From: Promethearchaeati archaeon
Lineage (GTDB): Archaea > Asgardarchaeota > Heimdallarchaeia > JABLTI01
Reading direction: 5' to 3'
DNA: 54,650 bases
NCBI GenBank assembly: GCA_013166835.1
Contig: JABLTI010000006.1
Location: 1-54,650, forward strand
In this document: one piece after another, positions 5,016-44,519 of the stretch
How the letters are laid out: the number at the start of each line of letters is the position of its first letter
Position numbering within the stretch: position 1 is the stretch's first letter
Notes under the pieces: model-generated
What the model was told of the DNA's origin: nothing
What the model saw: only the letters and a program-made list of their open reading frames with translations
Database searches by the model: none
Position numbers and translations under genes: made by a program

Positions 5016-7022
5016 TTATTTAGTTTTCATGATTCTATCATGAGCTTTCTTATTTTTAGGCAATGTAAATTTAAATGTCGAACCTTTGTTTTTTCCATCT
5101 GATTCAGCTAATACTGTGCCCCCGTGAGCTTCTACAAGGCTTTTCACCACAGCTAATCCTAAACCCGAGCCAGGACTTTTCGGATCTACTTTTACATATT
5201 GTTCAAAAATTCGTTTCAAATCTTTCTTGTATATTCCTAATCCGTTATCAATCACTGAAATTTCTATGAAATCTTTATTCAGATTCTTTGCAATAATTCG
5301 AATATTACTATCTTTTTCTGTGAATTTAATCGCATTAAGAACTAGATTCTTAATTATTCTTACAACTTGTTCTTTGTCGCACCAGGCACTTAATTTATCT
5401 GGAATATCGTGTGACACAATGAATCCCTTGTCTATTATTACAGATCCAACAGCAGTTAGAGAATCAGATACAATGGCTCTTAGTTGGTATTGTTTGTGTT
5501 TCAGTGTGTATCCTTGAGTTTCTAAGGTGGAATGATCCATGATTTCGAGAATACTTCGTGAAACATTTGCTAGATTGTTTCGTAAGTATTCAATGGTTCC
5601 AAATACTTCATCACCAAGCTCTCCCAACTGTCCTAAGAGTATTTGATCTAATAATTCTTTTGAGCTTCTTAATGGATCCAGTAATCCTGTTGAGGTTACC
5701 TCCATGAAATTTGAGCGCTCTCTATTTACTTCTTGGAGTTTTTCGTTAAGCTCTTCTAGTTTTACATAAGAAGTTGTTAGCTCTTCTTCTTGTAATGCAA
5801 GCTTTGTTACATCTTCACATAGTGCTAGGATCTCTGTGATTTCTCCTTCCTTATTAGCCATAGGAACGACTTTCAAACTTATAATTGTGAATGGCTGAGG
5901 GAATTTTACGTCTACGTTTTTTATCTTTAATCGATTAACATCCACTTTTTCTCCAGATAAACCCTTTTTGAATAATTTAATCAAGGAAACTGGAAAAGCA
6001 GCTTTTTGTTTGTCTTTCTTGCCTTTTATGATATCAGCACCAACAAGATCATTTCTTTTCTTCTCTGCCATAATTTCAACTAAAGGATTCAAACCAGTCA
6101 ATATGCCCTTAGAATTAATTGTTAAAATCGCAATTGGGGAATTTTCTATGATATTGTCTAATTCTTGTCTTGTTCTTCTGAATTTCTCTTCAGGAACTAA
6201 GGCACTAAAGAGTGCTGAATGTAATTTATACATGTCTGGAACAGAGGTTAATTGTTCATCTCCGATTGCTATTGTTGGTAATGACATTATATCGTATTTT
6301 TCAGCTAGTTCAGGTTCCTCATCAATATCCACTTTTCTATAAGTAATTTTTCCACTATAGGATGCTAAAACTTCTTGAAGTACTTCCTCTGCTGGTGCAC
6401 AGTACACACAGTCTTTTGAAGTGAAAAGGTAGATTTCTGTGTAAATGGTAGTTGTATCAGCAATAATAGATGCTAGTTGTTCATAAAGTTCGAGGAGATT
6501 ATTATATAGTGTTTGCAATTCCATATTTTTATTACGCAATTCTCTTTCGACAATTTTCCGATCGCTAATGTCAGTTATAATAGCATATGTTCCAATAGAT
6601 TCCCCATCAGGACCTAATATTGGTGTTCCGCTAATTAGCACCGGAATTTTCGAACCTAATTTTGATCTGAAAGAAATTTCATACTGTGATGTTTTCTTTT
6701 CGGTAAATCTTTTTTCTGATTCTCGACTTACTCGAGCACGATCTGATTCCATAACTATGTCAATGGAATTCATACCAAGTAATTCATCTTCCTTGTACCC
6801 AAGCATTTTGCAGATTTTTGGATTAACATAGATTATGTTGAGATTCATATCAGAGGCTACGATTCCTTCAGGCATAGTATCAACTAAAGTCTTGTACCAT
6901 CCACTAGAAGTGAGGATCTTTTCCAAAATAGGATGAGTCTTGAAATCACTCTCTCTATTTATATCGGATTTCACTATTGGTAGCTCCGGGTACAAAACAT
7001 AGAGTACATTGAATATACTCAC
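5016..7022 (-). CDS. PAS - thioredoxin - PAS - histidine kinase-like protein (phosphoacceptor His apparently absent)
   Basis: PAS/PAC (YVNPKICKMLGY...DISDRK); thioredoxin fold (CVYC...VDIDEEPELAEKYDIMSLPT); second PAS; HATPase_c boxes (NLVLNAIKF, DNGLGI, GSGLGLAVVK). H-box reads FMEVTSTGLLDPL. Confidence 0.85.
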   Translation of the reverse strand: MSIFNVLYVLYPELPIVKSDINRESDFKTHPILEKILTSSGWYKTLVDTMPEGIVASDMNLNIIYVNPKICKMLGYKEDELLGMNSIDIVMESDRARVSRESEKRFTEKKTSQYEISFRSKLGSKIPVLISGTPILGPDGESIGTYAIITDISDRKIVERELRNKNMELQTLYNNLLELYEQLASIIADTTTIYTEIYLFTSKDCVYCAPAEEVLQEVLASYSGKITYRKVDIDEEPELAEKYDIMSLPTIAIGDEQLTSVPDMYKLHSALFSALVPEEKFRRTRQELDNIIENSPIAILTINSKGILTGLNPLVEIMAEKKRNDLVGADIIKGKKDKQKAAFPVSLIKLFKKGLSGEKVDVNRLKIKNVDVKFPQPFTIISLKVVPMANKEGEITEILALCEDVTKLALQEEELTTSYVKLEELNEKLQEVNRERSNFMEVTSTGLLDPLRSSKELLDQILLGQLGELGDEVFGTIEYLRNNLANVSRSILEIMDHSTLETQGYTLKHKQYQLRAIVSDSLTAVGSVIIDKGFIVSHDIPDKLSAWCDKEQVVRIIKNLVLNAIKFTEKDSNIRIIAKNLNKDFIEISVIDNGLGIYKKDLKRIFEQYVKVDPKSPGSGLGLAVVKSLVEAHGGTVLAESDGKNKGSTFKFTLPKNKKAHDRIMKTK

Positions 7023-7116
7023 AGAATTTTGACCATTTTTCTCAAATAAATCTTCTGCTTTAGTACTTTTCGACGAAATATTGCTTTTTTTGCTTAATAA
7101 AATTTATCCCGAGACT

Positions 7117-8751
7117 TTAATGGTCTTTCACTTTTCCATTACTTTCATCTTGTTTTATGCTTTTTTCAGTTCTTTTTTGCTGTTCGCCCCAAGCCCCTCC
7201 ACCAGGGGTTTCTATAACGATTAGTTCTTCTGCGTTCACTGTTGTGGTTGTTTTACCTGGTAAGATTATTTTTTTACCATCAGTTTTAATGACATAATAG
7301 ATTCCTTTCTTCCCGTCTTCTCCTCCGGCTAATCCCCAAGGAGCAGTTTTCTGTCTTTCACCCAATACACTAACTACAACAGGCACTTTAGTTCTGAATT
7401 GCCGTATAATTCCTAAACCACCGCGAAATCGACCATTTCCACAACTATCTTCTCTTAAAGCATACTTTTCAACAACCAGGGGATATCTAACTTCTATTTC
7501 TTCAATAGGAGTATTCATGGTATTTGTCATATGAGAGTGAATGCCATCTATTCCATCCTTTGTTGGGCGACCTCCCGCTCCTCCACCAATTGTCTCGTAA
7601 AATGTAAACGGTCTACCGGAGTGATCAGTTCCACCAATTATGAGATTGTTCATTGTTCCTTGAGAAGCTGCTGGAATTCTATCTGGCAATATCTTTGAAA
7701 ACGCTTTCAACAAAGTATCAACAATTCTTTGTGAAGTTTCTACGTTTCCACCCACAACTGCAGCAGGTGAACGAGCATTAAGAATGGTTCCTTCAGGAAC
7801 GATAACCGACAGATGTCTGTATAAACCTTCGTTAGCAGGGATCGTTGGATCAGTTATTGCTCGTAAAACATAGTAAGAACCTGAAAGAGTTACAGCATAA
7901 GGGCAGTTAATTGCGCCCTTTACTTGTTCTGAGGTACCAGTAAAATCAAAAGTAACATGCTTTCTTGTCATCTTTACATTAACAACTAATTCCACAAGAT
8001 CATCTACAATTCCATCTCCATCCATGTAGTCCTTCCCTTCAGCTTCGCGTTCAGGATAGCCACTCAAGATAGATAGAAATCTTCTTTCTGAGTAATTGAG
8101 TATATCATCTACTGCTAGTTTGTATGTTTTCATCCCTTTTTGGGTTATCAATTCTTGAAGTCTTTTCTCACCAGTCCAATTCGAGGATAATTGAGCCATT
8201 AGGTCACCTTTTCTAATCTTCGGAGTTCGAGAATTAGTCATAATAAAATTCAAGATGTCTTTACTTACCTCTCCTTTTGAGACCAATTTAACAGGAGGTA
8301 TTCTTAATCCTTCTTGGAATATTTCTGTTGCATTTCCTGGCATAGATCCAGGAGCCATTCCACCAATATCATTGTGATGCGCTCTACTCACAGAATAACC
8401 TGCAAGAACGTCTTTGAAGAAAATGGGAGTTATAATTGTAATGTCAGGTAAATGTGTTCCTCCCAAGTATGGATCATTCAATATAAACGAATCACCAGGA
8501 TAAATCTCCCCCTCGAATTTCTTTTCAATACTCCTAACAGCAATTGGCATTGCCCCTAAGTGGACAGGTATGTGTTCTGCTTGGGCGATCATTCTTCCCT
8601 TATAATCAAATAAAGCACAGCTGTGATCCATTCGTTCTTTGATGTTTGTGCTATAGGCTGCATTTCTTAAGATAATACCCATTTCTTCAGCAATGTATTC
8701 TAATCCCCCACGAATAACTTCTCGAGTAATTACATCAACGTTCATTGTCAC
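7117..8751 (-). CDS. hyuB: Hydantoinase B / 5-oxoprolinase subunit
   Basis: AAYSTNIKERMDHSCALFD, HIPVHLGAM, NDPYLGGTHLPD, YETIGGGAG, TPGGGAWG motifs. Confidence 0.93.
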   Translation of the reverse strand: MTMNVDVITREVIRGGLEYIAEEMGIILRNAAYSTNIKERMDHSCALFDYKGRMIAQAEHIPVHLGAMPIAVRSIEKKFEGEIYPGDSFILNDPYLGGTHLPDITIITPIFFKDVLAGYSVSRAHHNDIGGMAPGSMPGNATEIFQEGLRIPPVKLVSKGEVSKDILNFIMTNSRTPKIRKGDLMAQLSSNWTGEKRLQELITQKGMKTYKLAVDDILNYSERRFLSILSGYPEREAEGKDYMDGDGIVDDLVELVVNVKMTRKHVTFDFTGTSEQVKGAINCPYAVTLSGSYYVLRAITDPTIPANEGLYRHLSVIVPEGTILNARSPAAVVGGNVETSQRIVDTLLKAFSKILPDRIPAASQGTMNNLIIGGTDHSGRPFTFYETIGGGAGGRPTKDGIDGIHSHMTNTMNTPIEEIEVRYPLVVEKYALREDSCGNGRFRGGLGIIRQFRTKVPVVVSVLGERQKTAPWGLAGGEDGKKGIYYVIKTDGKKIILPGKTTTTVNAEELIVIETPGGGAWGEQQKRTEKSIKQDESNGKVKDH

Positions 8752-12104: not shown

Positions 12105-12875
12105 TTGAGTTATGACAAATCTATGATTGAAGAAGTTGAAGGTTCCGATTTTGCTAAGTGTATTTGTTTAACAGATATCAACGTCAAAACAGTTATTATC
12201 GGTTTTCCTGGCATGGGATTAGTAGGAGCTATTGCTGCCCAACACATAAGTGAGAAATTAAAGCTTGATACAATTGGTTTCATAGAAGGAACCGCTATTC
12301 CACCTGTTGCAGTTTTCTTAGATGGTTATTTGCGTCATCCTTACAGAATAATGGGCAAAAAAGATTCTGAAATAGCGGTATTCATAGGCGAAAGTGTAGT
12401 AACACCTGAAGGAGCATATCACATAGCAAAAGCAATAATGAATTGGGCTGAAAAGCATGGAGCAAAAGAAATTATTGCATTAGATGGTTTTCCATTTTTG
12501 GATCCAAAAGATGAATCAAAAGTCTACATGGTTGCAGAGCCGGAGATAAAAGAGAAAGCAGAGAAACTCAAAATTCCGCCACTAAGAAGTGGATTTATTA
12601 GAGGATTCGCTGGAGCAATGTTGAATAAAACTATGATCAGTTCAGTAGATGGGTTTGCATTTTTAGTTGGAACCCGACCTGATTTACCTGATCCTGGAGG
12701 AGCTGCCTCTCTTATTAAAACAGTTAATACTTACAAAGGTACAGATATCAATGTAGATACTCTTATGGAGCAATCCGATTCAATAAAGAAGAAGCTCGCA
12801 GAGCTTGCACTACAAACCCAAGATATGAATGTCCAACCACCTGGACCAAAAAGAAAGAGCACTTTCTATACCTAG
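12105..12875 (+). CDS. PAC2-family proteasome assembly chaperone (PbaA/PbaB-like) with C-terminal HbYX
   Basis: GFPGMGLVGAIAA, PYRI, PDPGGAA motifs; ends in F-Y-T; AGGAG SD before a TTG start. Confidence 0.88.
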   Translation: MSYDKSMIEEVEGSDFAKCICLTDINVKTVIIGFPGMGLVGAIAAQHISEKLKLDTIGFIEGTAIPPVAVFLDGYLRHPYRIMGKKDSEIAVFIGESVVTPEGAYHIAKAIMNWAEKHGAKEIIALDGFPFLDPKDESKVYMVAEPEIKEKAEKLKIPPLRSGFIRGFAGAMLNKTMISSVDGFAFLVGTRPDLPDPGGAASLIKTVNTYKGTDINVDTLMEQSDSIKKKLAELALQTQDMNVQPPGPKRKSTFYT

Positions 12876-13007
12876 TTGGATTTTCTCCAACTTTTTTCAT
12901 TTTTCTTTATTTGAGTAGTTTATTTTGTTAACGATAGTTATTTTAGTTGTCAAATTTATGGTATTATTACAAGATGGTTTAGTCAAACCACTTTCGAGGA
13001 TTCAACA

Positions 13008-13598
13008 TTGACAGATGAAATTTTATCTTTTCTCCAAGAAGCACTTCGATTAAAACGAACGGTTAGAAGTGGCTGGATTTATTCAGGAGTCTCTAAAGCT
13101 GATACAGAAAGTGTAGCAGATCATAGTTATATGATAACTCTTCTTACACTAATTCTGGCAGTAAAAGAAAAAGAGAAGGGAAATAATATTGACATTGAGA
13201 AAACTCTTGTTATGGCTATACTTCATGATTTACCCGAAAGTGTTTCACAAGATCTAGATAGAAGAATTCGCAAGTATTCACCTAAGAAATATGATGAATT
13301 TAAAAATGATTTAGATAAGGAAGCAATAAAACATCTCTTTGATAATCTTCCTGGAAAAACTAGTGATTATTTGCTTGAAATTTTTCAAGAATTTCATGCG
13401 AAAAAATCTCCGGAAGCGAGGATTGTATTGGAAGCAGATCGATTGGAAACCATTCTACAGATGAATGACTATATTCAACGTGGGTACCCTCGAGAGCTTT
13501 TCAGTGAATTCATTAAAAATTTCTCTGAGGAAGTTGATGATTATAAGAATGAGGATGTTAAAGATATAGCAAAACATTTACTGGAGGGCACAAAATAA
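13008..13598 (+). CDS. HD-domain hydrolase (YfbR/HDDC2-like 5'-deoxynucleotidase)
   Basis: LKRTVRSGW, ESVADHSY, LHDLPE and ADRLE motifs. Confidence 0.88.
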   Translation: MTDEILSFLQEALRLKRTVRSGWIYSGVSKADTESVADHSYMITLLTLILAVKEKEKGNNIDIEKTLVMAILHDLPESVSQDLDRRIRKYSPKKYDEFKNDLDKEAIKHLFDNLPGKTSDYLLEIFQEFHAKKSPEARIVLEADRLETILQMNDYIQRGYPRELFSEFIKNFSEEVDDYKNEDVKDIAKHLLEGTK

Positions 13599-13599
13599 A

Positions 13600-14343
13600 T
13601 TGAATAAAGAAAGCTATGTAAATAGTCGTTATTCCCGTTTTGCAGCTATACCCTCAATAGGAGCTGGTGGGGTCGATAAAATTAGAAAAGCTAAGGTAAC
13701 GGTTGTTGGTGCAGGCGGATTAGGTTCTGTAACCGCTCCACAACTAGTTGCTTTAGGAGTAAAATTTTTGCGAATTATTGATCAAGATGTTGTTGAACTC
13801 TCGAATCTTCAACGTCAAACATTATATCGAAAAAATGATATCGGAAAATCGAAAGCAAAAATTGCTAAGAAATTCTTAGAAGAACTAAACCCAGAAGTAG
13901 AAATAGAAGCCATTAATGATAATGTAACAGAGAAAAATGCCCGTACTGCTACTGATTCTGTGGATTTTGTTGTAGATGCTGTAGACAGGTTTACTCCTCG
14001 GTTTGCACTAAATAAAGCGTGCTTAGAGGAGAATATCCCTTATTTGTTTGGTGCAGTTAGTGGAATGTCTGGGAATATCATGACCGTTATGAGAGGAACG
14101 ACCTGTGTGGAATGTATTTTCAGTCAAGCTGATGATTCTAAACTCCCCACATCATTAGAGGTTGGTATTCATCCCTCTATAATCAATATTATTGGTAGCT
14201 TGCAAATTTCTGAGGCAACTAGAATTATGTTAAAAGAGCAACCAGTACTCCTAAACAAATTACATTTCTGTGATATTGGTACAATGCAATTTGAAACTTT
14301 GAATGTTAAAACTCGAGATGATTGTTTCTGTTCGAAATATTAA
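13600..14343 (+). CDS. ThiF/MoeB/E1-like adenylyltransferase
   Basis: RYSR, VVGAGGLGS, IIDQDVVELSNLQRQ, CVEC and C-terminal CFC; GGAGG SD. Confidence 0.9.
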   Translation: MNKESYVNSRYSRFAAIPSIGAGGVDKIRKAKVTVVGAGGLGSVTAPQLVALGVKFLRIIDQDVVELSNLQRQTLYRKNDIGKSKAKIAKKFLEELNPEVEIEAINDNVTEKNARTATDSVDFVVDAVDRFTPRFALNKACLEENIPYLFGAVSGMSGNIMTVMRGTTCVECIFSQADDSKLPTSLEVGIHPSIINIIGSLQISEATRIMLKEQPVLLNKLHFCDIGTMQFETLNVKTRDDCFCSKY

Positions 14344-14386: not shown

Positions 14387-14605
14387 CTAGACTATAAATC
14401 CACTGTTTACAAAAAACATGAATATAGACATTCCAATAAACATTGAAGCGGCAATTGCTCGTGCAATTGAACCTCTAAAGGATCGATCAGGATCTGCTTC
14501 TTGATAAATTATTAGCCACACTAATGCTACTAATCCTAAGATTAGGAATATAATTCCAAATGCTAATAATCCTTTTGGACCGAGGAATGCTGTGAAATCT
14601 TTCAT
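14387..14605 (-). CDS. ost5: OST5/TMEM258-like oligosaccharyltransferase small subunit (72 aa)
   Basis: Two TM helices. End-to-end colinear with TMEM258 as I recall it (FT..GP.....L..G.....W...Y....R......AS.F.G.........G..V). GGTGA SD precedes ATG at 14605. Confidence 0.7.
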   Translation of the reverse strand: MKDFTAFLGPKGLLAFGIIFLILGLVALVWLIIYQEADPDRSFRGSIARAIAASMFIGMSIFMFFVNSGFIV

Positions 14606-14699
14606 ATGTCTTTTCACCTATTTCATTGCTGTTATAAAGATTATATTAAAATCTTTCTAGAACATTAAGAATAAAAAAAAGGATGAGTTATATACTAAC

Positions 14700-16838
14700 T
14701 CAGGACTTTTCATCTAATTCGTATGGATAGAATTTTCTGTTAAGGGAATCTTTCAGTGGTCGTTGACTAATAATTAAAATCACTGTGAGAATTAGGAGTA
14801 ATCCAATGAGTCCTATTTCAATGCCTAGTACATAGTTTTCTGCTAGTCCTATTCCACTCGCAATAGTTGTATTAAGGGTAGTGAAGATATCAACGATTGG
14901 AAATATTCCAAATAGAACAGCTAGTAAACCTGTGATTTTTGCCCCTATGCAATTTCTAACTTTCACTGGTGCATTTATGCTGAAAATATTCTTTTTATTG
15001 TACCAGAATCCTAGTTTTCCAGTTATTTTCCCTCTTCTTGCGAGAGGTGTTATACTAAATTCAACGACGGTCATCTTTTCACTACTTAAATCAACAACTT
15101 CATCTTGTGGTGTTACATGACAACCAGGGAAAACTGGCACCAGTTTTATTTCTTTCAAATTATCTGAATTCTTAGTATCAGCTGGTGGGATTCTTACAAT
15201 TAATGGAAATACTTTTTGTGGATACATTCGCTTATAGTATTCAAGTCCGATAGTTCTTTGGAATACTTTCTCAGTTGCTTTTTCTTCTGCTTTTAATGCA
15301 TGTTCCAAACTTACTAGTTCTTTTTTCCTGATTTCTAGTCGTTCTTCAAGCGAAAACATTTCATCTCTTTCTGGTGTTGTTTCACTCAGATCTTCAGTAA
15401 TTGGTCTATCGATAAGAGAAGATTCTTCAATAACATCCTCATGAAGTGTGGTATCTTCAACAACTTGTTCTAGTTCATCTGTTTCTGTTATTTCCACTAC
15501 TTCTTCCATAATATAGGGAATTTCTTCTTCTGTAACTGGCAAATCACTTATTTGCTCTTCACCTAATGGTTCTTCTTCTTCCTCAACCACAGGCAAATCA
15601 TAAGAAACAAACTCCCCATCTTCCTCTTCAATTATGCTATCATCAAAAGATTCTGTTAATTCGCTCTCAGCTGTCTCTTCAACAGAGACTTCTTCATCTG
15701 GATCAACTTCTTCAAGGGAGCCTTCTCTAAATGATTGTTCTTCTTTTTCAGCTACAAAAATATCATTGAACACTTCTTCTACAACGGATTTTTCTATAGT
15801 TGATTTGGTTTCAATCGTTACGTCTTCAGTTTCAATTGGTACTTCCTCAGTAGCTTCAAGAACTCCTTCTACCTCTTTCTCAACTTCAAATTCATCTATT
15901 TCATTACTAACAGATATTTCATCCATCAAAGATTCTATGGATTCAACAGGAATGATTTCTTCTTCTGGTTCTTCTTCGAGAACTTCTGCAGGTATTTGCC
16001 AAGGATATGTTGGTTCTTCTTTTGGTTTGTCTTCAATTGGTTGAGTTAAATATGATTCAGCTTCGATATCACCACTCGTTTCTGTTTCGACGATATCAGC
16101 AACGCCATCCTCCATAATTGGAGGTTCTTCTTCTGATGGGAACGTTCTTTCAACATAATGGTCGGTAATTTGGTCAACCTCTGATTTTTCTTTTTGACTG
16201 GATTCTAAGAGTTTCTTTGTCATATCAATAATTTCTGTTTCATCAAGTTGTGGTGGATACACCATAGGCTCTGGTGGAGCATCGGTTACGGTTGGACCAT
16301 CTTCTAATGTTTTTACAGGTTCAACCAGAGGATCCCCAAGATCTTTACCCACAATTCGATAGAAATTTCCCCAAGAATTCAACACAAAAGCAGTAGGCAT
16401 ACTAAAGACTTCATAATCTATAACCTGCCCATCTTGTCGTTCTATAGAAACATCCCTTATAGAAACTGAGAAACTTTTACAAGCAGTTCGAAATGTTGCT
16501 GCAAAAGGTATTGCTTCTGGAACATCGAGGTCAATAATATAATCTCCATGATGAAAAGTGACTATACTTGATTCTCCTGCATAGTATTGTGAGCCGTATT
16601 TTTGAATTAAAAAGTCAATTGTTGAGTATTGATTATCTATAACAACGATTTCTCCCAAGATATCTATTACAGCGATTACTCGAGGGTGAATACTCAAAGT
16701 TGTTCTTAATTCATCTAATATTTGTATTAGTAATGTACCCCTTGGTACTTTAAATGTAAAATCCACTACTTCTGAGTCTATTAGAACTTTAAATTCTAAT
16801 TGATGTATAAAGCCACTCAAATCTAAGACCTCTTTCAC
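14700..16838 (-). CDS. Membrane-anchored protein: two UFM1-like beta-grasp domains, long acidic linker, Ig-like domain, two C-terminal TM helices
   Basis: aa 91-164 LDVPEAIPFAATFRTACKSFSV...I...DGQVI...V...WG...RIVG resembles UFM1; aa 14-88 is a weaker copy (KVP...KYGSQ). E/D-rich middle; hydrophobic C-terminal hairpin. Confidence 0.7.
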   Translation of the reverse strand: MKEVLDLSGFIHQLEFKVLIDSEVVDFTFKVPRGTLLIQILDELRTTLSIHPRVIAVIDILGEIVVIDNQYSTIDFLIQKYGSQYYAGESSIVTFHHGDYIIDLDVPEAIPFAATFRTACKSFSVSIRDVSIERQDGQVIDYEVFSMPTAFVLNSWGNFYRIVGKDLGDPLVEPVKTLEDGPTVTDAPPEPMVYPPQLDETEIIDMTKKLLESSQKEKSEVDQITDHYVERTFPSEEEPPIMEDGVADIVETETSGDIEAESYLTQPIEDKPKEEPTYPWQIPAEVLEEEPEEEIIPVESIESLMDEISVSNEIDEFEVEKEVEGVLEATEEVPIETEDVTIETKSTIEKSVVEEVFNDIFVAEKEEQSFREGSLEEVDPDEEVSVEETAESELTESFDDSIIEEEDGEFVSYDLPVVEEEEEPLGEEQISDLPVTEEEIPYIMEEVVEITETDELEQVVEDTTLHEDVIEESSLIDRPITEDLSETTPERDEMFSLEERLEIRKKELVSLEHALKAEEKATEKVFQRTIGLEYYKRMYPQKVFPLIVRIPPADTKNSDNLKEIKLVPVFPGCHVTPQDEVVDLSSEKMTVVEFSITPLARRGKITGKLGFWYNKKNIFSINAPVKVRNCIGAKITGLLAVLFGIFPIVDIFTTLNTTIASGIGLAENYVLGIEIGLIGLLLILTVILIISQRPLKDSLNRKFYPYELDEKS

Positions 16839-16952
16839 ATAATACTATTATATTATTTATATTACCTTCGAATGTTAGAATCTTTCGTATAGAATACTTT
16901 TTGTATGTTGTCTATTTTAATCTTCTAGTATAAACAAAAGGAGAAAAATCTC

Positions 16953-18683
16953 TTGAGAGAGAAAAAGACATCAGATATGGAAGTCCTAAAAGTGGAATCC
17001 ATTCACGATGAATCCTTCAGTTCATACCTCTTAAGACCTTACAATAAACTTCTCAATAAGAAAATTTTCAACAAAATTTTCAGTTCTTTACCTTTAGTTG
17101 CAATAATTATCGGATCTTTAATTGTGCGAGTCATAGCTGCAGGCGAATCACAAGGATTCGTTCATCCTGATGAGGTTTTTCAAGCAATTGAAATGGTTCA
17201 TTTCAGGATATTTGGAGAATTTGGCACAGGACAAACAATTCCTTGGGAATATGATTTAAATAAAGCCTATGGGGGAGCTCGATCTTGGTTTTTTGTCTTT
17301 ATACTTGTAGCAGTCTATAGAATTGCAATGTTTTTTGGCATTACTGATCCTTTAAGTTTAATCTTTGTTGCCAGATTATTCCTTGCTTCATTCTCAATTG
17401 TGTCTGTTATCGTCTCTTACTTTTTTGGCAAGGAAATATTTAACAAAAGAATTGGTTTATTGAGTGCATTTCTGGTTGGTTTCTGGTGGTTCTTTCCTTT
17501 TTGGTCTAGTAGAACCATGACGGATTCTATTTCAACAGATCTTATTTTTCTAAGTATTTTTCTTGCATATAAAGCATTAAAAAATGAAACATCATCCAAG
17601 AGACGATTTCTCTTAGCGTTTTCGTCAGGTATTTTTACAGGCTTGTCTTTTATGATTCGTTTCCCCTCTGCTCTAATGGGAATACCCATCATTCTTGTAT
17701 TGTGGGCAAAACCAATCCGCGAGTTAATAATAAATTTCATTAGAAGAATAAGAAATTTTATCACAAGGGTTTCAAAGAATCCTAGAGAAGAATTTCTGGA
17801 AACAAAATTTTCTGCAAATATGACTAAAGAGCTCGCAATAGGTGGAGGATTCATAATCGGATCTTTCTTTATGGTTTTAATGCAAGGATTACTTGATCTA
17901 TTTACCTGGGGTAGTTTTCTTCATTCACCAATCAATTTTTTCAAATATAACATAGTAGAAGGATTAAGCGCCATGCATGGTTCGAGTCCATGGTATACCT
18001 ATTTTGCTGGTTTCTTTACAGATTTTGCTTATTACTTTGTACCTTTGCTTCTTATGTTCTTCATTTTTGGTTTTAGTTATAAGAGAAAAATCAAAACAAA
18101 GATAATGATTTTGAGTATCATTATGTTTTGGATTGTTGTCTTTTCTTCTCTCGCCCATAAAGAATTCAGATTTATTATGACCATTCTTCCTTTGTGTATG
18201 ATAATGGTTGCTGCAGGCATCCAGAGAGTAGTTGTTACACTGCAATCAAAAAGAAATCAACATATTCTTCTGAGTTTCATTTTAATCTTTTTAGGATCAA
18301 CATCTTTTTTCCTTGCAAATTACAATTACAAATATATGTGGAAATGGAATTCTGGTGTTTGTAATGCGATGTATTGGGTGGGAGAACAAGAAGATGTAGA
18401 AACAGTTATTGTGTTTGAAACGGTGTGGTACACTGGTGGATATGCCTATCTTGACGTAAATGTGACATGTTATTTTCTGAAGATAAGTTACTATTTCTTA
18501 CCTCCAAGTCATGCTTATAATTCAAGCTATTTTAGATATCTGTACAGTCAAAAAGGTACATATGTTATAGTGCGGGATTACGAGCTTTCCATTATTGAAC
18601 CTATAATAACAGATCTAAATATGACAATGGTTGCTAATGTTTCCGGTTATCCTTATGCTAAAGTCTTCACCCAAGCAAGCTGA
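16953..18683 (+). CDS. GT22-family (PIG-B/Alg9-like) GT-C membrane mannosyltransferase
   Basis: FVHPDEVFQAIE.VH...G...IPWEY and HKEFRF motifs; many TM helices. Confidence 0.85.
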   Translation: MREKKTSDMEVLKVESIHDESFSSYLLRPYNKLLNKKIFNKIFSSLPLVAIIIGSLIVRVIAAGESQGFVHPDEVFQAIEMVHFRIFGEFGTGQTIPWEYDLNKAYGGARSWFFVFILVAVYRIAMFFGITDPLSLIFVARLFLASFSIVSVIVSYFFGKEIFNKRIGLLSAFLVGFWWFFPFWSSRTMTDSISTDLIFLSIFLAYKALKNETSSKRRFLLAFSSGIFTGLSFMIRFPSALMGIPIILVLWAKPIRELIINFIRRIRNFITRVSKNPREEFLETKFSANMTKELAIGGGFIIGSFFMVLMQGLLDLFTWGSFLHSPINFFKYNIVEGLSAMHGSSPWYTYFAGFFTDFAYYFVPLLLMFFIFGFSYKRKIKTKIMILSIIMFWIVVFSSLAHKEFRFIMTILPLCMIMVAAGIQRVVVTLQSKRNQHILLSFILIFLGSTSFFLANYNYKYMWKWNSGVCNAMYWVGEQEDVETVIVFETVWYTGGYAYLDVNVTCYFLKISYYFLPPSHAYNSSYFRYLYSQKGTYVIVRDYELSIIEPIITDLNMTMVANVSGYPYAKVFTQAS

Positions 18684-20316: not shown

Positions 20317-23300
20317 ATGTTTGAAAATATCGAAAAAGCCCGACAGCTTCTCAAACCAGGCACTTATAGAGCTGCTATAGATGAATTCTTTAAACTTGTT
20401 AAAGAGTTAAAGGAGAAAGGAAATGAAGATGAAGCTTGTAGATTATTATTAGAAATTACCTCTAGTATCACAGGAACTAACGATAGAAGACTGATTTTTC
20501 TCACAGCAGAAGGACTTCTTCGAGAACTTGATAAATTAAAAGTAAAAGATCCCGATAGCTTTTACGGGGAAATTGATGTCTTTCTTGCAAATGTAAAAGA
20601 TCTTTATAGGAAAAATGATGACCAATTTGAGAAAGCAGCTCAACTATCAGAAATCCAAATTAGATTGTATGATAAAATAAAACGAGAGACCACAGATATT
20701 GCACTCGAGGCAGCAAATGATTATGCAGATTTAGCAGCAAAGATTTTGTCAAGAACAAGACTTAGAGATGAAGACGAAAAGCAAGGTCAAGAAACTATAA
20801 AGAAAGCAAAAAAATTGTATGGAAAAGCTAAACAAGAAGAAAAAGTAATCGACATTTACATCAAGACTTTCAACAAACATATAGAGAATCGCAATGAAGA
20901 AATGGCAGAAAAATACTTGGATCAAGCAGTAAATTTTGTGTTAAGTCTAAAAGCAGATGAAGTAAAAATTCTCACTGTGACTGAGCAATTAATGAATTCT
21001 TTTGTTGTATTTGTTGAATTTAAGATTCCCGATATCTTGAATCCCGAACAGAAGATATCCAAAGTAGAGACAGTGCAATATGAAAATAATGTCGCAACAA
21101 GAATTATTACCCATGCCAAAGATATTTGTGTTTCCCGAAAAGCAGAACCTGCAATTCTCATTCTTGCGAAAGAACTCTCACTGATTGGTTTAGCTATCTT
21201 TTCAAAGGGATTATATGATATCGCAATCCCATATTATGAAACTGCTAAGGATTATTATATTGAAGTTGGAATAGATCAAGAAGCAATTGAATATGGATCC
21301 AATGTTGCCTCAATTGGTTTGCAATTATATACTGATGAAAGGTATCCTATTGGAAGAGATTACTTCAGAATTGCTATTGAACTTGGTCGAAGTATAGATA
21401 GGGAGTTTGAAGTTAGCATTTATCTTAAACAAGCTGAACTGCTTTTAAAATATAACAAATTTCAACTGGCATATGAATCACTCCGAATGATGATTGATCC
21501 TTTAACGGAGCTTCCTGAGAGCGATATGAGAATGGACGCTCCAAGTATGATTCGACAACTAGCTCAAGAAAGATTCAATAAGAACGATTTTCATTATGCA
21601 GAATTATTTTATCGCTTGGTTACAGAATTCTTTATTGCTTTTGATCAAATTGATTTAGCTGCAGATACTTTTGATGCTGCATGGCAATCTATGTTCAATG
21701 TAAGACAGCTCCAAACTGGTATCGACTTGGCTACTAAAGCTGCTAATTTTTATCTTAAAACTGGCAAAGAAGAAGAAGCATCAGAAGTCTACTTTAAATT
21801 AGCGGAACGATTATTGCAAGAAGGGCATTTAGATATTGCATTGGAACGATTAAAACTTACAGCTGAAGCAATTCCAGAAAACCTTCGAGAGCAAAAATTC
21901 AAACCACTTGTAGAAATTGCTACAAAATATACTGAACAATGTATAAAATCCGGAGATATTATTTATGCTCGAGACCTTTGGAAGGCTGCTTGTGAATTTA
22001 ATGAAGTTCTTGCTCGATCTCTTATCAAACGCGATATTAATGCAGTAGTTGAAACAATTGAAGAGCATATTAGTAATGTACGAAAATTCGACACTGAAGA
22101 ACTTAATGAAGTAACTATGGAATCTGCAAGAGGGAGTGGGAAAGTTCTCGCTGAAGCCGGAGAAAATGAACGAGCAGCAAAGGTTTTGGTAGGGTTTGCA
22201 ACTGATTTTCTAAGGAAAAATATTACTGAATTTGCTGATCCCTTGTTTGAACAAGGAGCAGAGGAATTCATTAAAGCAAAACAACCAGAAGAAGCAGCTA
22301 GAGTATTATCTGCTCTTGGGAGATATCATTCTGAGAACGGAAATATTGACAAAGCACTCCATTACTATTTATTAGCATCTGTTGATAGTGAAATGAAGGT
22401 TGATCCCAACATATTCCACTCGGTTGCAGAACATTGTTTTGAAACTTTTTCCAGTCAATTAAATGCGGGTGCTACTGATATCGCAGAAAAAGGATTTGAA
22501 ACTACTATTAGAATTGAGCTTGCTGTTAGTAAAGAAGCTGCTGCAAATAGTGCAAGTGATATGGCAAAGTTATTTGTTGAAAAAAATGAATTTACCTTGT
22601 CAATAAAGTATTATGAGCAAGCAATCAGCTATTATATGGAGTCATCAATTAGAAATGCTGTCGCCTTAGGAGCAGAAATAATTGAACGAGGTAGAGAGAT
22701 TTTCCAGAAAAAACTTTTCGAAGACTCAAGTAATTTCATTATATTAGGCCTTGAAGCATTAAGCAAATCCAATCAGAAAATACAAGCAGCACAAACAGCT
22801 AGGATTGAAGGGGAACGATTCTTAGGAAGTGCTAACCCTCACCTTGGAATTAATTTACTAAACAAAGCAGTCGCATATTATCTTGAGTTAAATGATAAAA
22901 GCTCAGCTGCTGATATGCACATTACATTAGGTAGGTATTTTATTTCTGCTAATGATTTCGAACATGGATTAAGAGAAATAAAGGTAGCAGGTGATATTCA
23001 ATTAACACTTAAGAAATCTAATGAATTAAAGAAATTAATCAATATCATTAACGAGATTGCAATTGAAATTGCTACAAGTAAAATTACTTCAACCAAAGCA
23101 GGTGAAGAAGACCGAGAAAAAATGAGTCAAACATACTTTGCGGTCGCAGAAGATTTTACTATACAACTTGGCGATTTAGAGTTTAACAGTGAAGTAAATT
23201 ATAAGGAATGGATCACTTATTCAAAAGAACTCCTTCATAATGCAGCTTATGAAAGTTTGAAGAAAACCTATGAGTCATATATTAGTTTGAAGAACAATAA

Positions 23301-26300
23301 ACGTATAAGTGAGCTTGCTGCAGAAGTTACTAGTTTCTCAACTGATCTTATTTCTAAAGAGGATCTTATTGGAGCAACAAAATATCTGAATTTATCAATC
23401 AATATTCTCCAAAAGGTAAACAAACATGAAGAAGCTGCTGCTATGTGCATCAGAACTTGTGAAGAATTTCTAAAATTGGAAAACAATGAAGTTGCAGTTT
23501 CTTGGGGTATACGTGGTGCTGAAATCTTAACAGAAGTTCAAATCTCAGATGAAGCAATCCAATTTCTTGAAGAACTTGTTAATGTTTTAATGGCTAGGAA
23601 TAGCATAGAAAATGCTATACTTTGTTATGGGAAAATCGCTAAAATCCTTGAACTAAATGGACGAATGAAAGAAGTTGAAGAAACAGCACTTAAAGTGATG
23701 GCTTTTGGGACTGCTAATATGAAAAGCAATAATCCTGAAGCTGGTTTACGTTTATGGGAAGTAGCGCTAACAATTGGATCAATTGTAGGAGAAGAATTTA
23801 CAGGAAGACTATGTATTATTGAGGGCCAAACTTTCTATGATATTAAGAATTATGAGAAATCCATTGAGCTCTTCAAAGAAAGCTTCAGTCTTTTCAACCG
23901 AACTGGAAAGCCTAATCGTTTAATCAGTCTCGGCAATGCTATTTTTGATATAGCATATGAATTACAGAAGAATATGGATTTTGATACTTCTTTCAGATAT
24001 CTACCAATTGCATTTGAAGCATTAATTGCGGGAAATGAATTAATGTTAGCAACAGATAAGATGTTTGGTAATGCTAAAAATTTCATAGAAATTGGAAAAG
24101 ACAAGGAAGGATATCATATCATTAATACTGCTATTGACACCTTATTCTCAAAAGAAGATATGGCGGGGGGAGTTGAACGATGCTTTATTGGTGCTGCCTT
24201 ACTAATTTCCTATGGAAAGAATGTTGAAGGAAGCAGATTAATCGATAAAGGAATGGAGAAAACCGTACAAATTACTGATGAGCCAGCGATTAAGCATCTT
24301 GCTACTGTCTGTAGAAATCAAGGTATTATTCTTCGAGATGAAGGTAAACTCGAAGCTTCTCATATTATACTTGCTTCAGGTATTGGTATTTTGCGAACAA
24401 TTAATGATTTAGTAGGTATTGGGCAAATTAGCATTGATCTTGGAGAAACACTCATAAAACGAAATGAAATGAATGCTGCAGTTGAAGCGTTTCGAAATGG
24501 TATACATTTGCTAGCACGAGGTGGTCTTGGTAAAGAAGCAAGTGATATTGTTAACAATCTAATCACAGAGGGAAGAAAGCAAATCGATAATCAGAATATT
24601 ATTATTGGAGTACCTCTTGTAGAGCTCTCTGGAGAACTATTCATTGAATTAGGTCAGCCTGAACGTATTATGGTTATCTCTGAAATTTTCATAAATCTCG
24701 GTGGAAAGATGCTTAATGAGAAGAATTACGACATAGCAGCACTTTACTTCTCTAAAGCAATGGAATTAGCTCTACAAGCAGGTCTTAAAGATTATTTACC
24801 AAAAGTCGGTAATCGATGTATTGATTTCGGACTTAAACTTGTTAAAGAAGGAGACCCAATGCTTGGTATCCAATTTATGAATGCAGGTGCTGACTTGATT
24901 TCAGAATTCGAGGAGAAAACAGAGAAAGCAAGTCGAGCTACTTCTAATTATATTGAAGCAATAACACAAGTTCTAAGCCCAGCATATGAGAAAATATTCG
25001 AGGTTGAAGAAGAAAGAATGGTTTTAATTGGTCAATTTATAGATTCAACAATTAAATTCTTCACTCAAATTAAAGCAGCAAAAGATTTAGAAAAACTCAC
25101 AAAAACACTTCTCGATTATGGAAAGAAATTACTGAGAACAAAGAATCCGCGAATTGTTAGACGTATTTTTGAACCAGCATTACGATCAGCTGAAAATGCA
25201 AATAATACAAAACTACAAATTGAAATTGGAAACGCATATTTAACTCATGTTAGTTACTTGGTAGATAAAAAGCAATACGACTATCTTGATACAACAGTAA
25301 ATCAAGCATTAAACATCTATATTGAAGTTAATGAATTAAAAGAAATAAGGAAATTTATGGGTATAATGGCTCATACTGGACGAGAGCTAAGTCTTGAATC
25401 AACGACTCGTACTCATGGCATCAAAATTTTAACTATGTTATCTGATTTAGCATCCTCACTTACTCATCAAGAACTTTATCCGGTCACAATCATCCCACTT
25501 ATCCACTTGAATCAGCAAGCATTAGAGCAGGAAAATCTTGAACTTATGATTTTCGCCAGACAAAACGTCATTCGTCTCTTACAATCTATATTAAATACAA
25601 ATTACTCATTGGCCATTCTCGGTAATATTAGCTTATCAAATATGATTTATGAGTGGTTCAAACCTGCTGAGGAAATGATTTCAAAATCAATGTTTTTGGA
25701 TCAGACCATTAAAATTATCGATCAATCCTTGCAACTTGCGGTTATCACTCAAGAAATTGAGTTGGGTATGGCAGTAATTGATAAAACCTTTGAATTAATC
25801 GATACCGTACTCAGACGTAAAGTAAAAGGTATTGATGTTCTCTATGAAGTTCTCGCAATTGCTCTTACTGGTCTTGGACAAAGAGCTAGAGTTGTGGAAT
25901 TAGGAACTAGATGTATGGAAGATGGAAAAGAAGCTGCTGAAAGAAAACATTTAATGGAATCTATCAGTCTGCTTAAAACTGCAGGTCGAATATTTGCTTT
26001 ATTAGATGATGAAAGGTTAATTGCTGATACTGCTATTGCAGCTGCAACCATTGGAGATCTTCGTTTACGCGATAAGAATTACAGGGAAGGACTCTATTAT
26101 TATTCTGCAGCGCTTGAAAACTATGAATTATCACGTGATGAGAAAAGCATCCAACTTATAGCTAAAACAATACAGGATATGTTCAATACAGCTCCGATGA
26201 AAGACGGATATCTTTCCTTTGAAATTCCTGGAATGGTATTTGCAAATCGAGAGAATGTTACAGAAGCAGAAGCAATCGCTGTCAGAGCACTGGAACAAGT

Positions 26301-27243
26301 CGATAATATGCTTAAATCAGGAAAGAAAAACGTCATTTATGATTCTATTCTTTACTTATTCGCTGCAACTAAAATCTATGATAAAACAGGAAATTTCATA
26401 GAAGAAACTAAAATCTATGATACTCACATGTTTCAGTATATATCCGCGATTAACGAGGCAAAAGTTGTTGATTTATTCTTAGACATGTTAATTCGTTCTA
26501 TAACAAAGAAATTACGTATTTGGGACTTTATTGCAATCATAAAATTATTTGACCAAATTAAAGATCAAAAGGTCTTAAAGAATAAACAATACCAAGCAAT
26601 AAGAAGTTCAATTGAAGAATTACTTAAAGGTCAAATCCCAGAAGCCTTTGAGCATGCTCGCCAAGTAAATGTGTTATTTGAGCGAGGTGTTCAGGAATAT
26701 GCTGAGATCTACAAAGAACAAATCAAAGAAGATATCAGAGAAAGTGGCAAGTTAAGTATACATGATTACATGCAAGAACAACCCATCTCAGACCTAGTTA
26801 ATGTCTTAATCCAAGATCTCTATGGTAGAAAAGAAATTGAAGGAAAGTATTTCCCAATTGGTCTTTTTGTTTCTGCCAAGCAATTAGAAGGCACAATTAA
26901 TCTCTTAGACAAAGAATTAGCTGACAAAGGGAAAGCTGTCATAACAGAAGTTGCTCAGAATACTGCTTTGACATTAGATGAAGCTATGAGTGTTATCCGT
27001 ATCGAATACCTTCCACAGAAATTCCAAGCAACTCTCAATGAGGATTATTCAATTGTTTATTCTTATCTGCAGTTAAGAAATGAAGTCAAAGATCTTGCTC
27101 TCGGATACCAAGAAATTGGAAATATTGATATAAACAAAATTTCACAGCAACTCAAATTCCCACCCGAGACTATTCAACGAGAAATTGAATATCTTATTCT
27201 AGAAGGTAAAATCAATCCTCGTTTGGTCGGTAGAACTAAATAA
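20317..27243 (+). CDS. Giant TPR/SNAP-like alpha-solenoid protein with C-terminal tandem winged-helix (UFL1/PCI-like) domains
   Basis: 2308 aa of A..Y..A-type helical repeats. The last ~170 aa contain three wH-like units ending in the PCI-like IDINKISQQLKFPPETIQREIEYLILEGKINPRL. Confidence 0.8.
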   Translation: MFENIEKARQLLKPGTYRAAIDEFFKLVKELKEKGNEDEACRLLLEITSSITGTNDRRLIFLTAEGLLRELDKLKVKDPDSFYGEIDVFLANVKDLYRKNDDQFEKAAQLSEIQIRLYDKIKRETTDIALEAANDYADLAAKILSRTRLRDEDEKQGQETIKKAKKLYGKAKQEEKVIDIYIKTFNKHIENRNEEMAEKYLDQAVNFVLSLKADEVKILTVTEQLMNSFVVFVEFKIPDILNPEQKISKVETVQYENNVATRIITHAKDICVSRKAEPAILILAKELSLIGLAIFSKGLYDIAIPYYETAKDYYIEVGIDQEAIEYGSNVASIGLQLYTDERYPIGRDYFRIAIELGRSIDREFEVSIYLKQAELLLKYNKFQLAYESLRMMIDPLTELPESDMRMDAPSMIRQLAQERFNKNDFHYAELFYRLVTEFFIAFDQIDLAADTFDAAWQSMFNVRQLQTGIDLATKAANFYLKTGKEEEASEVYFKLAERLLQEGHLDIALERLKLTAEAIPENLREQKFKPLVEIATKYTEQCIKSGDIIYARDLWKAACEFNEVLARSLIKRDINAVVETIEEHISNVRKFDTEELNEVTMESARGSGKVLAEAGENERAAKVLVGFATDFLRKNITEFADPLFEQGAEEFIKAKQPEEAARVLSALGRYHSENGNIDKALHYYLLASVDSEMKVDPNIFHSVAEHCFETFSSQLNAGATDIAEKGFETTIRIELAVSKEAAANSASDMAKLFVEKNEFTLSIKYYEQAISYYMESSIRNAVALGAEIIERGREIFQKKLFEDSSNFIILGLEALSKSNQKIQAAQTARIEGERFLGSANPHLGINLLNKAVAYYLELNDKSSAADMHITLGRYFISANDFEHGLREIKVAGDIQLTLKKSNELKKLINIINEIAIEIATSKITSTKAGEEDREKMSQTYFAVAEDFTIQLGDLEFNSEVNYKEWITYSKELLHNAAYESLKKTYESYISLKNNKRISELAAEVTSFSTDLISKEDLIGATKYLNLSINILQKVNKHEEAAAMCIRTCEEFLKLENNEVAVSWGIRGAEILTEVQISDEAIQFLEELVNVLMARNSIENAILCYGKIAKILELNGRMKEVEETALKVMAFGTANMKSNNPEAGLRLWEVALTIGSIVGEEFTGRLCIIEGQTFYDIKNYEKSIELFKESFSLFNRTGKPNRLISLGNAIFDIAYELQKNMDFDTSFRYLPIAFEALIAGNELMLATDKMFGNAKNFIEIGKDKEGYHIINTAIDTLFSKEDMAGGVERCFIGAALLISYGKNVEGSRLIDKGMEKTVQITDEPAIKHLATVCRNQGIILRDEGKLEASHIILASGIGILRTINDLVGIGQISIDLGETLIKRNEMNAAVEAFRNGIHLLARGGLGKEASDIVNNLITEGRKQIDNQNIIIGVPLVELSGELFIELGQPERIMVISEIFINLGGKMLNEKNYDIAALYFSKAMELALQAGLKDYLPKVGNRCIDFGLKLVKEGDPMLGIQFMNAGADLISEFEEKTEKASRATSNYIEAITQVLSPAYEKIFEVEEERMVLIGQFIDSTIKFFTQIKAAKDLEKLTKTLLDYGKKLLRTKNPRIVRRIFEPALRSAENANNTKLQIEIGNAYLTHVSYLVDKKQYDYLDTTVNQALNIYIEVNELKEIRKFMGIMAHTGRELSLESTTRTHGIKILTMLSDLASSLTHQELYPVTIIPLIHLNQQALEQENLELMIFARQNVIRLLQSILNTNYSLAILGNISLSNMIYEWFKPAEEMISKSMFLDQTIKIIDQSLQLAVITQEIELGMAVIDKTFELIDTVLRRKVKGIDVLYEVLAIALTGLGQRARVVELGTRCMEDGKEAAERKHLMESISLLKTAGRIFALLDDERLIADTAIAAATIGDLRLRDKNYREGLYYYSAALENYELSRDEKSIQLIAKTIQDMFNTAPMKDGYLSFEIPGMVFANRENVTEAEAIAVRALEQVDNMLKSGKKNVIYDSILYLFAATKIYDKTGNFIEETKIYDTHMFQYISAINEAKVVDLFLDMLIRSITKKLRIWDFIAIIKLFDQIKDQKVLKNKQYQAIRSSIEELLKGQIPEAFEHARQVNVLFERGVQEYAEIYKEQIKEDIRESGKLSIHDYMQEQPISDLVNVLIQDLYGRKEIEGKYFPIGLFVSAKQLEGTINLLDKELADKGKAVITEVAQNTALTLDEAMSVIRIEYLPQKFQATLNEDYSIVYSYLQLRNEVKDLALGYQEIGNIDINKISQQLKFPPETIQREIEYLILEGKINPRLVGRTK

Positions 27244-41955: not shown

Positions 41956-42021
41956 ATATTATAAGCGATAAAAATGCATTGTTAGTTTGGTGTCAATTTT
42001 TAAATTTTGGAGGTTTGGAAT

Positions 42022-44441: not shown

Positions 44442-44519
44442 TTAGAACAAAATAATAAATTTGATTTAAATTAGATACCCATTAGCCGGGGATCAAAGGA
44501 CGTTATTGGGGAAAACTAT

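Follow-up and report, generated by a model that had tools for sequence, protein, structure and literature searches.

A Heimdall-group membrane protein family that joins a weakly UFM1-like domain to a membrane anchor

The ubiquitin-like protein UFM1 acts in eukaryotes on ribosomes at the membrane of the endoplasmic reticulum (ER). Ubiquitin-like domains also form integral N-terminal parts of membrane proteins such as Herp/HERPUD1, Usa1 and TMUB1, in which they are cytoplasmic. According to a passage in Picchianti et al. (2023), UFM1 is confined to eukaryotes (PMC10183829), and passages on Ufm1 in Kostlbacher et al. (bioRxiv 2024; Nat Microbiol 2026) reported homologues in nine Asgard clades (PMC12962969). 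Two UFM1-named SwissProt rows were found in Data S3 of the latter, both of them Lokiarchaeial; one is a structural match to UFM1 residues 1-84, and the other belongs to a protein that matches both UFM1 and UFC1. Here, we analysed a stretch of 54,650 nucleotides (nt) from a Promethearchaeati archaeon (Asgardarchaeota; Heimdallarchaeia; JABLTI01), comprising positions 1 to 54,650 of contig JABLTI010000006.1 in assembly GCA_013166835.1 and hereafter called the window, and focused on a reverse-strand open reading frame (ORF) at 14700..16838, which encodes a membrane protein with two N-terminal ubiquitin-like domains.

This protein combines known parts in a new way: a membrane anchor, an acidic tether and two ubiquitin-like domains, the second of which is weakly UFM1-like. 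Asgard Ufm1 homologues are already known from the passages cited above (PMC12962969), and the membrane-fused tandem architecture appears new. The locus tags of five members of the family are absent from the supplement of that paper, a statement that concerns the supplement only and not its trees. The architecture is also undescribed, among the matches listed, in the full-text literature on Asgard UFM1, archaeal UFMylation and Heimdallarchaeota tandem ubiquitin-like transmembrane proteins.

The gene family and its ubiquitin-like head

The ORF consists of 712 codons open from a GTG at position 16838. An AT-rich, TATA-like stretch at approximately 16845-16863 lies only 7-25 nt upstream of this codon, so close that the GTG would be disfavoured as a start. 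The MSG position is the start in 27 of the 31 aligned family members, and the database entry of the window protein itself has 706 amino acids (aa); from the sequence, TTG 16820 is probably the true start. Residues are numbered throughout in the 712-aa version of the initial annotation, counted from GTG 16838. The ORF is present as that annotation described it, and all sequence strings that it quoted sit at the residues given there.

Comparison of residues 1-180 with 5.8 billion proteins yielded 41 relatives among 866 candidates, with lengths of 486-917 aa and identities of 60-99% to the window protein over this region. Their source names are Heimdallarchaeota or Asgard, with the exception of one Zixibacteria-labelled record. 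A phmmer search over 1.84 billion representatives of all lengths returned 17 hits, 16 of which are family members or fragments, and none of the 17 is a free-standing head of ~170 aa. The remaining hit, P0048 (640 aa, six matched stretches), was spurious, being a repeat protein rich in Gly and Thr that matches no relevant Pfam family, and it was excluded from the alignments. Only two fragments were obtained from 281 short candidates (30-93 aa), with expectation values (E) scaled to 5.8 billion proteins, a scale at which a weak UFM1-level match could not pass.

A scan of 185,579 species genomes identified ten loci, titled Heimdallarchaeota (eight), Promethearchaeati (one) and Bathyarchaeia (one). 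The architecture proposed by the initial annotation is present in other Asgard genomes, is known only from those of Heimdall type and always occurs in fused form; every full-length relative retains the membrane anchor. The locus titled Bathyarchaeia (L006) has the full Heimdall gene order, and both this locus and the relative named Zixibacteria (P0021) are likely mis-binned or mislabelled. Conservation was expressed as the mean majority fraction per region in the 31-sequence alignment (Table 1), and by this measure of sequence the head, namely domains 1 and 2, is the most constrained region of the protein.

The head was modelled with AlphaFold2 from residues 1-178 alone and 36 aligned sequences. 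The best model reached a predicted local distance difference test score (pLDDT) of 79.3 and a predicted template modelling score (pTM) of 0.70. This run and the one on the whole protein agree on the order beta-beta-alpha-beta-beta-alpha-beta, which occurs twice, and the two units abut at the invariant Gly88 almost without a linker. Domain 1 was modelled with strands at residues 11-20, 23-32, 54-58, 64-66 and 84-88 and helices at 37-48 and 74-81 (pLDDT 85-91), and domain 2 with strands at 90-97, 100-107, 130-133 and 159-164 and helices at 112-120, 142-145 and 152-155.

Foldseek comparison of the two-domain model with the PDB gave 57 matches at E<=1e-3, among which tandem ubiquitin-like proteins are foremost. 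The leading match is talin F0-F1 (E 9e-6), followed by linear di-ubiquitin, ISG15, FAT10, the tandem ubiquitin-like pair of OASL, and kindlin; the ubiquitin-like repeats of USP7 and a bacterial multi-ubiquitin protein were also matched. The root-mean-square deviations (rmsd) are high, at 8-15 A; the matches thus support the class of fold, and not any particular orientation of one domain to the other. Both head domains are modelled as beta-grasp ubiquitin folds at moderate confidence, from one of five models, in line with the two tandem ubiquitin-like domains that had been proposed for the N-terminus. Like ISG15, FAT10, linear di-ubiquitin and OASL (Foldseek E 4e-5 to 4e-4), the head consists of two beta-grasps placed head to tail and nearly without a linker. 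Unlike these proteins, to which it is only ~10% identical at an rmsd of 11-15 A, it has no Gly-Gly end and is not free-standing.

The two domains differ in their relation to UFM1. The whole protein matches a single Pfam family, Ufm1 (E 0.005, 17.2 bits; cut-off 27), and domain 2 alone matches it at E 2.4e-4 and 21.4 bits. The match recurs in 11 of 11 isolated domain-2 sequences and in 26 of the 31 full-length members, where it falls on the same residues; the best member gives E 1.9e-4, and the gathering threshold of Ufm1 (PF03671) was not reached by any score, either of the whole protein or of domain 2. No other ubiquitin-like Pfam family recurs among the 31 members, YukD appearing once (E 0.15). 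UFM1 is also the sole match of residues 1-178 among PDB sequences (E 1.8, ~60 aligned residues). UFM1 chains are on top when a domain-2 profile is compared with the PDB (E 0.34), level with the thioredoxin-like protein ResA (0.41). A profile of the full-length family matched only coiled-coil and acidic noise in the PDB sequences (troponin T etc.) and did not find UFM1, and it was replaced by head-only and single-domain profiles.

UFM1 is absent among the 50 Foldseek matches listed for the head model, which is expected, because a two-domain query favours two-domain targets. In the ESM Atlas, a feature search with domain 2 returned only scores below 0.9, with ubiquitin and Rad60-SLD clusters only at ranks 20-25, and it provides no more than a lead. 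For domain 1, none of 11 isolated sequences matched any ubiquitin-like Pfam family, its profile matched no PDB sequence, and hhalign aligned it to domain 2 with a probability of only 2.2%. By sequence, the UFM1 likeness of domain 2 is above chance yet sub-threshold, and the head comprises one UFM1-like domain and one orphan beta-grasp. The description of the protein as carrying two UFM1-like domains thus holds for domain 2, whose nearest sequence relative among the ubiquitin-like families within reach of Pfam is UFM1, and fails for domain 1; residues 14-88, which had been taken for a diverged second copy, bear no detectable sequence likeness to domain 2.

The end of domain 2 is marked by a conserved junction. 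All 31 aligned members share Gly88, Gly168 and Asp169 without exception, and positions 164-167 and 170 are variable. A semi-conserved stretch, G-D-x-[LFIY]-x-[ED]-P, starts at Gly168: residue 171 is hydrophobic (L in 23, F in 3, Y in 3 and I in 2 members), residue 173 is Glu or Asp in 28/31, and Pro174 occurs in 25/31. Autocatalytic cleavage of the 'GDPH' type at a Gly-Asp-Pro sequence was considered and dropped, Pro170 being present in only 13 of the 31 members. In the alignment to UFM1, Gly157 corresponds to residue 71 and Arg161-Val163 to residues 75-77 (R75-I77). Gly168 lies five residues beyond the last strand (R161-I-V163), and the terminal Gly83 of UFM1 lies six residues past its own. 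The tail of domain 2 (RIVGKDLG) had been compared with that of UFM1, and Gly164 (of 'RIVG') had been listed among the residues to check for processing; it is kept in 2/31 members only and is unlikely as a processing site. The invariant Gly168 lies within one residue of the register of the UFM1 Gly.

Domain 2 therefore resembles UFM1 (PF03671) in its predicted beta-grasp, in the ~60 residues that align and in an invariant Gly near the position of the terminal Gly of UFM1, and its Asgard origin agrees with the reported Asgard homologues (PMC12962969). UFM1 is a free protein of 85 aa, whereas domain 2 scores below the Pfam cut-off, forms part of a 700-aa membrane protein and is preceded by a beta-grasp that is not UFM1-like, and behind Gly168 come the invariant Asp169 and ~540 further residues. 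The UFM1 precursor has a short extension past its Gly; in the present family a long fused remainder is found in all members (544 residues after Gly168 in the window protein, and similar lengths in all 31 aligned members), and no free-standing form was found in the searches described above.

Tether, Ig-like domain and membrane hairpin

The acidic linker, the immunoglobulin (Ig)-like domain and the two membrane helices that had been read from the sequence are present, according to hydropathy, AlphaFold2 and Foldseek. Residues 171-495 of the tether (325 aa) contain 35% Asp+Glu and have a net charge of -98. Tether length differs widely among the family members, and there are islands of conservation at >=70%, with a mean gap fraction of 0.19. 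The conserved motifs are MVYPP (192-196), E220/D222/T225, YPW (278-280), IESL (301-304), E364, E427 and P434. Most of the tether was modelled at pLDDT <50, with helices at 200-232 and 347-372. The conserved islands may represent putative short binding motifs, as judged from the alignment.

The tether leads into a conserved helix with L497, R500, L501, R504, E507 and L508 as its conserved residues, and then into the Ig-like beta-sandwich, in which P568, P571-G572-C573, P577 and T597-P598 are invariant. The latter gave no Pfam match, and its Foldseek matches in the PDB (E ~1e-3) include HYDIN-type PapD-like domains, Caf1M, MSP, the MSP domain of VAP-A, the ASH domain of CEP192, and CARDB. From the model, the domain can be assigned to the general Ig-like class only. 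VAP proteins consist of an MSP domain, a coiled coil and a C-terminal membrane anchor, and in the present protein an Ig-like domain, predicted to be cytoplasmic and possibly of MSP/PapD type, likewise adjoins a helix and an anchor; its Foldseek matches include VAP-A, Scs2 and MSP (E 1.4e-3 to 4e-3). However, the order of the domains differs, the anchor is a hairpin, and CARDB and pilus-chaperone domains match the Ig-like domain equally well or better, with template modelling (TM) scores of 0.60-0.63.

In the membrane hairpin, AlphaFold2 placed helices at residues 631-663 and 667-691 and a strand at 695-703 in the tail, which carries a conserved RKFYP (pLDDT 79-91); in the whole-protein model, pLDDT is 78-93 over most of residues 500-700. 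N656 is invariant in the hairpin loop, and E674 is invariant inside membrane helix 2. An N-glycosylation sequon (NTT, 656-658) in an external loop was considered and dropped: Asn656 is invariant, but other members do not retain the sequon. No N-terminal hydrophobic signal was found in the protein, and basic residues lie on both outer flanks of the hairpin. Under the positive-inside rule, both ends and the whole soluble part would therefore be cytoplasmic. A sequence search with the C-terminal module retrieved the same family in 15 of 15 matches, and in the ESM Atlas the module found one Promethearchaeota cluster of 335-aa proteins at 0.91.

A possible docking platform and its alternatives

We tentatively propose, with a probability of roughly 0.45, that the protein is an uncleaved cytoplasmic docking platform whose head stays attached. 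The hairpin-anchored protein would face the cytoplasm with its Ig-like domain at the membrane surface; from this domain, the acidic and mostly disordered tether of ~325 residues, with its conserved motifs, would extend, and at its far end it would carry the strongly conserved head of two beta-grasp domains, the second UFM1-related. The head would act as a docking surface that draws a ubiquitin-like-binding partner to the membrane, and the motifs of the tether may bind additional putative partners. This reading is preferred because the head is always fused, because conservation runs through the Gly168 junction and because the tether bears motifs. The strong conservation of the head fits a surface with conserved partners, and the invariant Asp169 with the semi-conserved stretch after Gly168 is somewhat easier to reconcile with a protein that stays intact than with the junction of a propeptide that is discarded. 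Herp, Usa1 and TMUB1 would provide a functional analogy, in that an N-terminal ubiquitin-like domain is tethered to the membrane. The proposed likeness is one of function; these proteins have a single domain of ubiquitin type and lack both a long acidic tether and an Ig-like domain.

Several points weigh against the docking platform. The invariant Gly168 is, by the alignment, at most one residue off the register of the UFM1 terminal Gly, and it lies near the extreme N-terminus, the position used by natural ubiquitin-fusion precursors, as would be expected of a precursor. The alignment is shallow, all members showing 59% identity or more over the head. The model of the N-terminus is unstable: the other four of the five head models reached a pLDDT of only 42-59, and the head block only 37-66 in the whole-protein model. 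Approximately 20 kb are collinear in all ten loci, so the neighbouring genes carry little specific functional information. The analysis shows the gene and its family, the classes of fold, how conservation is distributed and how the genes are ordered; the topology, the uncleaved state of the head and every binding partner are what we infer.

The same Gly168 could mark the protein as the precursor of a two-domain ubiquitin-like modifier, similar to ISG15 or FAT10 with a UFM1-like distal unit, which a protease cuts after this residue; the ~168-residue head would then be activated by an E1-like enzyme and conjugated, and the membrane remainder would localise it or limit its release. We regard this as unlikely, although Gly168 is kept in 31/31 members while the residues before it vary, its distance from the last strand (five residues) approaches that of Gly83 in UFM1 (six), the very strongly conserved head takes the extreme N-terminal place that ubiquitin occupies in its natural fusions, its tandem fold resembles ISG15 and FAT10, and a ThiF-type E1 is encoded two genes away in 9/9 loci reaching it. 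In ubiquitin-like precursors, the residues beyond the terminal Gly typically vary freely, and an invariant Asp169 followed by semi-conserved residues would be unusual in a leaving propeptide. A conserved 'propeptide' of 540 residues would be without known precedent, and no relative encoding the head alone was found in the sequence searches. The E1 itself is of the generic MoeB/ThiF type and lies inside the collinear block; its best PDB relatives are MoeB and ThiF (1e-29), nearer than UBA5 (6.5e-19), and it scores under every NCBIfam equivalog cut-off. Beyond it, no ubiquitin-system gene was found in the 54.6-kb window, with no E2 domain (UFC1 or other), UfSP/C78, JAMM or UFL1-type domain. To a similarly low degree we credit a beta-grasp pair unrelated to ubiquitin-like signalling, which would mediate interactions in the manner of talin/kindlin F0-F1 or Ras-association domains. 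Its partner would be a small GTPase, a lipid or a cytoskeletal component, and its UFM1 likeness would be weak and either convergent or a relic. The best Foldseek matches, talin F0-F1 (E 9e-6) and also kindlin, agree with such a module, as do the UFM1 signal under the Pfam cut-off, a profile that matches PDB UFM1 no better than a thioredoxin-like protein (0.34 vs 0.41), and ESM Atlas feature scores that are all <0.9. However, the talin match (rmsd ~10 A, TM 0.35, 10-12% identity, kindlin included) reflects mainly two beta-grasps in a row, FERM F2-F3 do not follow the head, and Ufm1 is the sole ubiquitin-like Pfam match, on the same residues in 26/31 members. A Pfam match arising by chance would be unlikely to fall on the very family whose fold is predicted.

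In the loci reaching them, the gene is flanked by an Alg9-like GT22 gene (10/10 loci) and an Ost5-like gene (9/9), and the Ost5-like protein passes its Pfam cut-off; Ost5 is given as an Asgard oligosaccharyltransferase (OST) subunit in a section of a published study (PMC10307638). These neighbours would suit an accessory subunit of the archaeal OST/translocon region, bound via the Ost5-like protein and holding its head at the cytoplasmic face. The invariant Glu674 inside membrane helix 2 and an invariant Arg at the start of the second hydrophobic segment of the Ost5-like protein are compatible with such a subunit, which we nevertheless consider the least probable of the alternatives. The region is wholly collinear in these related genomes, which makes the adjacency unspecific, and contact with OST is putative. 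The present gene and the Ost5-like gene are separated by a T8 run at 14673-14680 and a TATA-like element at 14641-14650, which suggest separate transcripts. A complex prediction for residues 520-712 with the Ost5-like neighbour scored 0.00 against a mark of 0.32, a value that counts neither for nor against binding. A wider proposal would place a UFM1-type domain of the Heimdall-group relatives of eukaryotes not in a free modifier but in a membrane-bound machine, at the cytoplasmic face and beside OST/translocon genes, either as a permanently tethered, 'pre-installed' signal or as a precursor whose cleavage at Gly168 would free a two-domain modifier, and would see in it a snapshot of the origin of ER-linked UFMylation; we hold this to be quite improbable.

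Genomic neighbourhood and meaning of the family

The order common to the ten loci is a ~2300-aa TPR protein, a beta-CASP nuclease, the Alg9-like GT22 mannosyltransferase, the present gene, the Ost5-like gene, the ThiF-type E1, an HD hydrolase and PAC2 (coordinates of the main features in Table 1). A distance of 114 nt separates the Alg9-like gene from the present gene, which is bracketed by this gene and the Ost5-like gene, two glycosylation genes of eukaryote type. The Ost5-like gene lies downstream on the same strand in the 9/9 loci reaching that far; its likely start is ATG 14605, giving 72 aa (72-76 aa across loci). Its two-helix product is highly conserved over nine loci, with an FLGPK motif and a YQE..PDR.FRGS.AR stretch.

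Table 1. Coordinates of the protein regions and adjacent genes in the window, with mean majority fraction per region
Feature	Residues	Position	Strand	Majority fraction	Basis and remarks
Whole ORF	712 aa	14700..16838	-		From GTG 16838; probable start TTG 16820 gives 706 aa (MSGF...)
Domain 1	7-88	16575..16820	-	0.81	Beta-grasp ubiquitin-like fold by model; ends at invariant Gly88; no sequence family
Domain 2	89-169	16332..16574	-	0.82	Beta-grasp; UFM1-like by sequence, sub-threshold
Gly168-Asp169	168-169	16332..16337	-		Candidate processing/recognition site; both 31/31; flanks vary
Acidic low-complexity tether	170-495	15354..16331	-	0.35	Composition; conserved short motifs; mostly disordered in model
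Conserved helix	496-525	15264..15353	-	0.62	AlphaFold2 helix 497-521, pLDDT 67-88
Ig-like beta-sandwich	526-628	14955..15263	-	0.59	PapD/MSP/ASH/CARDB type; modelled 528-627, pLDDT mostly 82-93
Two-helix membrane hairpin and basic C-terminal tail		14703..14954	-	0.52 (membrane helices, residues 629-695)	Hydropathy ~630-657, 665-696; AlphaFold2
Ost5/TMEM258-like small membrane protein		14387..14617	-		Pfam Ost5 E 9.3e-7, 29.5 bits (cut-off 27.4, passed)
Alg9-like GT22 mannosyltransferase		16953..18683	+		Pfam Glyco_transf_22 E 8.5e-47; divergent; 10/10 loci
ThiF/MoeB-type E1-like adenylyltransferase	247 aa	13600..14343	+		Pfam ThiF E 4.6e-67; convergent; 9/9 loci reaching it

On the plus strand at 12105-14343, PAC2 (proteasome assembly chaperone family) and an HD/YfbR-like hydrolase stand with the ThiF-type E1, and the stop of the HD gene is 1 nt from the start of the E1 gene. 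The giant ORF at 20317-27243 (+) encodes 2308 aa, has a weak TPR match only and is 52-93% identical in all ten loci. In locus L001, the beta-CASP nuclease gene (6741-8134) appears as two overlapping ORFs of 311 and 153 aa, and it is a single ORF of 458-472 aa in the loci containing it whole; the split is either a frameshift or an assembly error.

Other genes were found further along the window. The segment 35859-41145 (-) has a G+C content of 0.28-0.31 (0.33-0.37 elsewhere) and contains two adjoining ORFs with weak Double-GTPase (DO-GTPase1) matches, beside which are a 1182-aa ORF with a GAP1-N2 match and a 1107-aa ORF without a match; it is possibly a conflict or defence island. A MIT+AAA ATPase with a Vps4-like domain pair is encoded at 42630-43784 (+), flanked by small helical ORFs (41338-42594 and 43785-45302) without a significant Pfam family, which could be diverged ESCRT-III-type partners. 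Finally, a homologue of the KEOPS subunit CGI-121 (53169-53807, +) adjoins a THUMP-domain ORF (53815-54357, -).

A conserved Heimdall-group protein in which a UFM1-like domain is fused to a membrane anchor is a concrete, clonable object. It raises the questions of whether the UFM1 fold was first a tethered domain or a free modifier, and whether this fold was linked to membranes before eukaryotes arose. If the protein is an ordinary integral ubiquitin-like domain protein, it would still represent an unannotated, clade-specific family of membrane proteins with a clear domain map.

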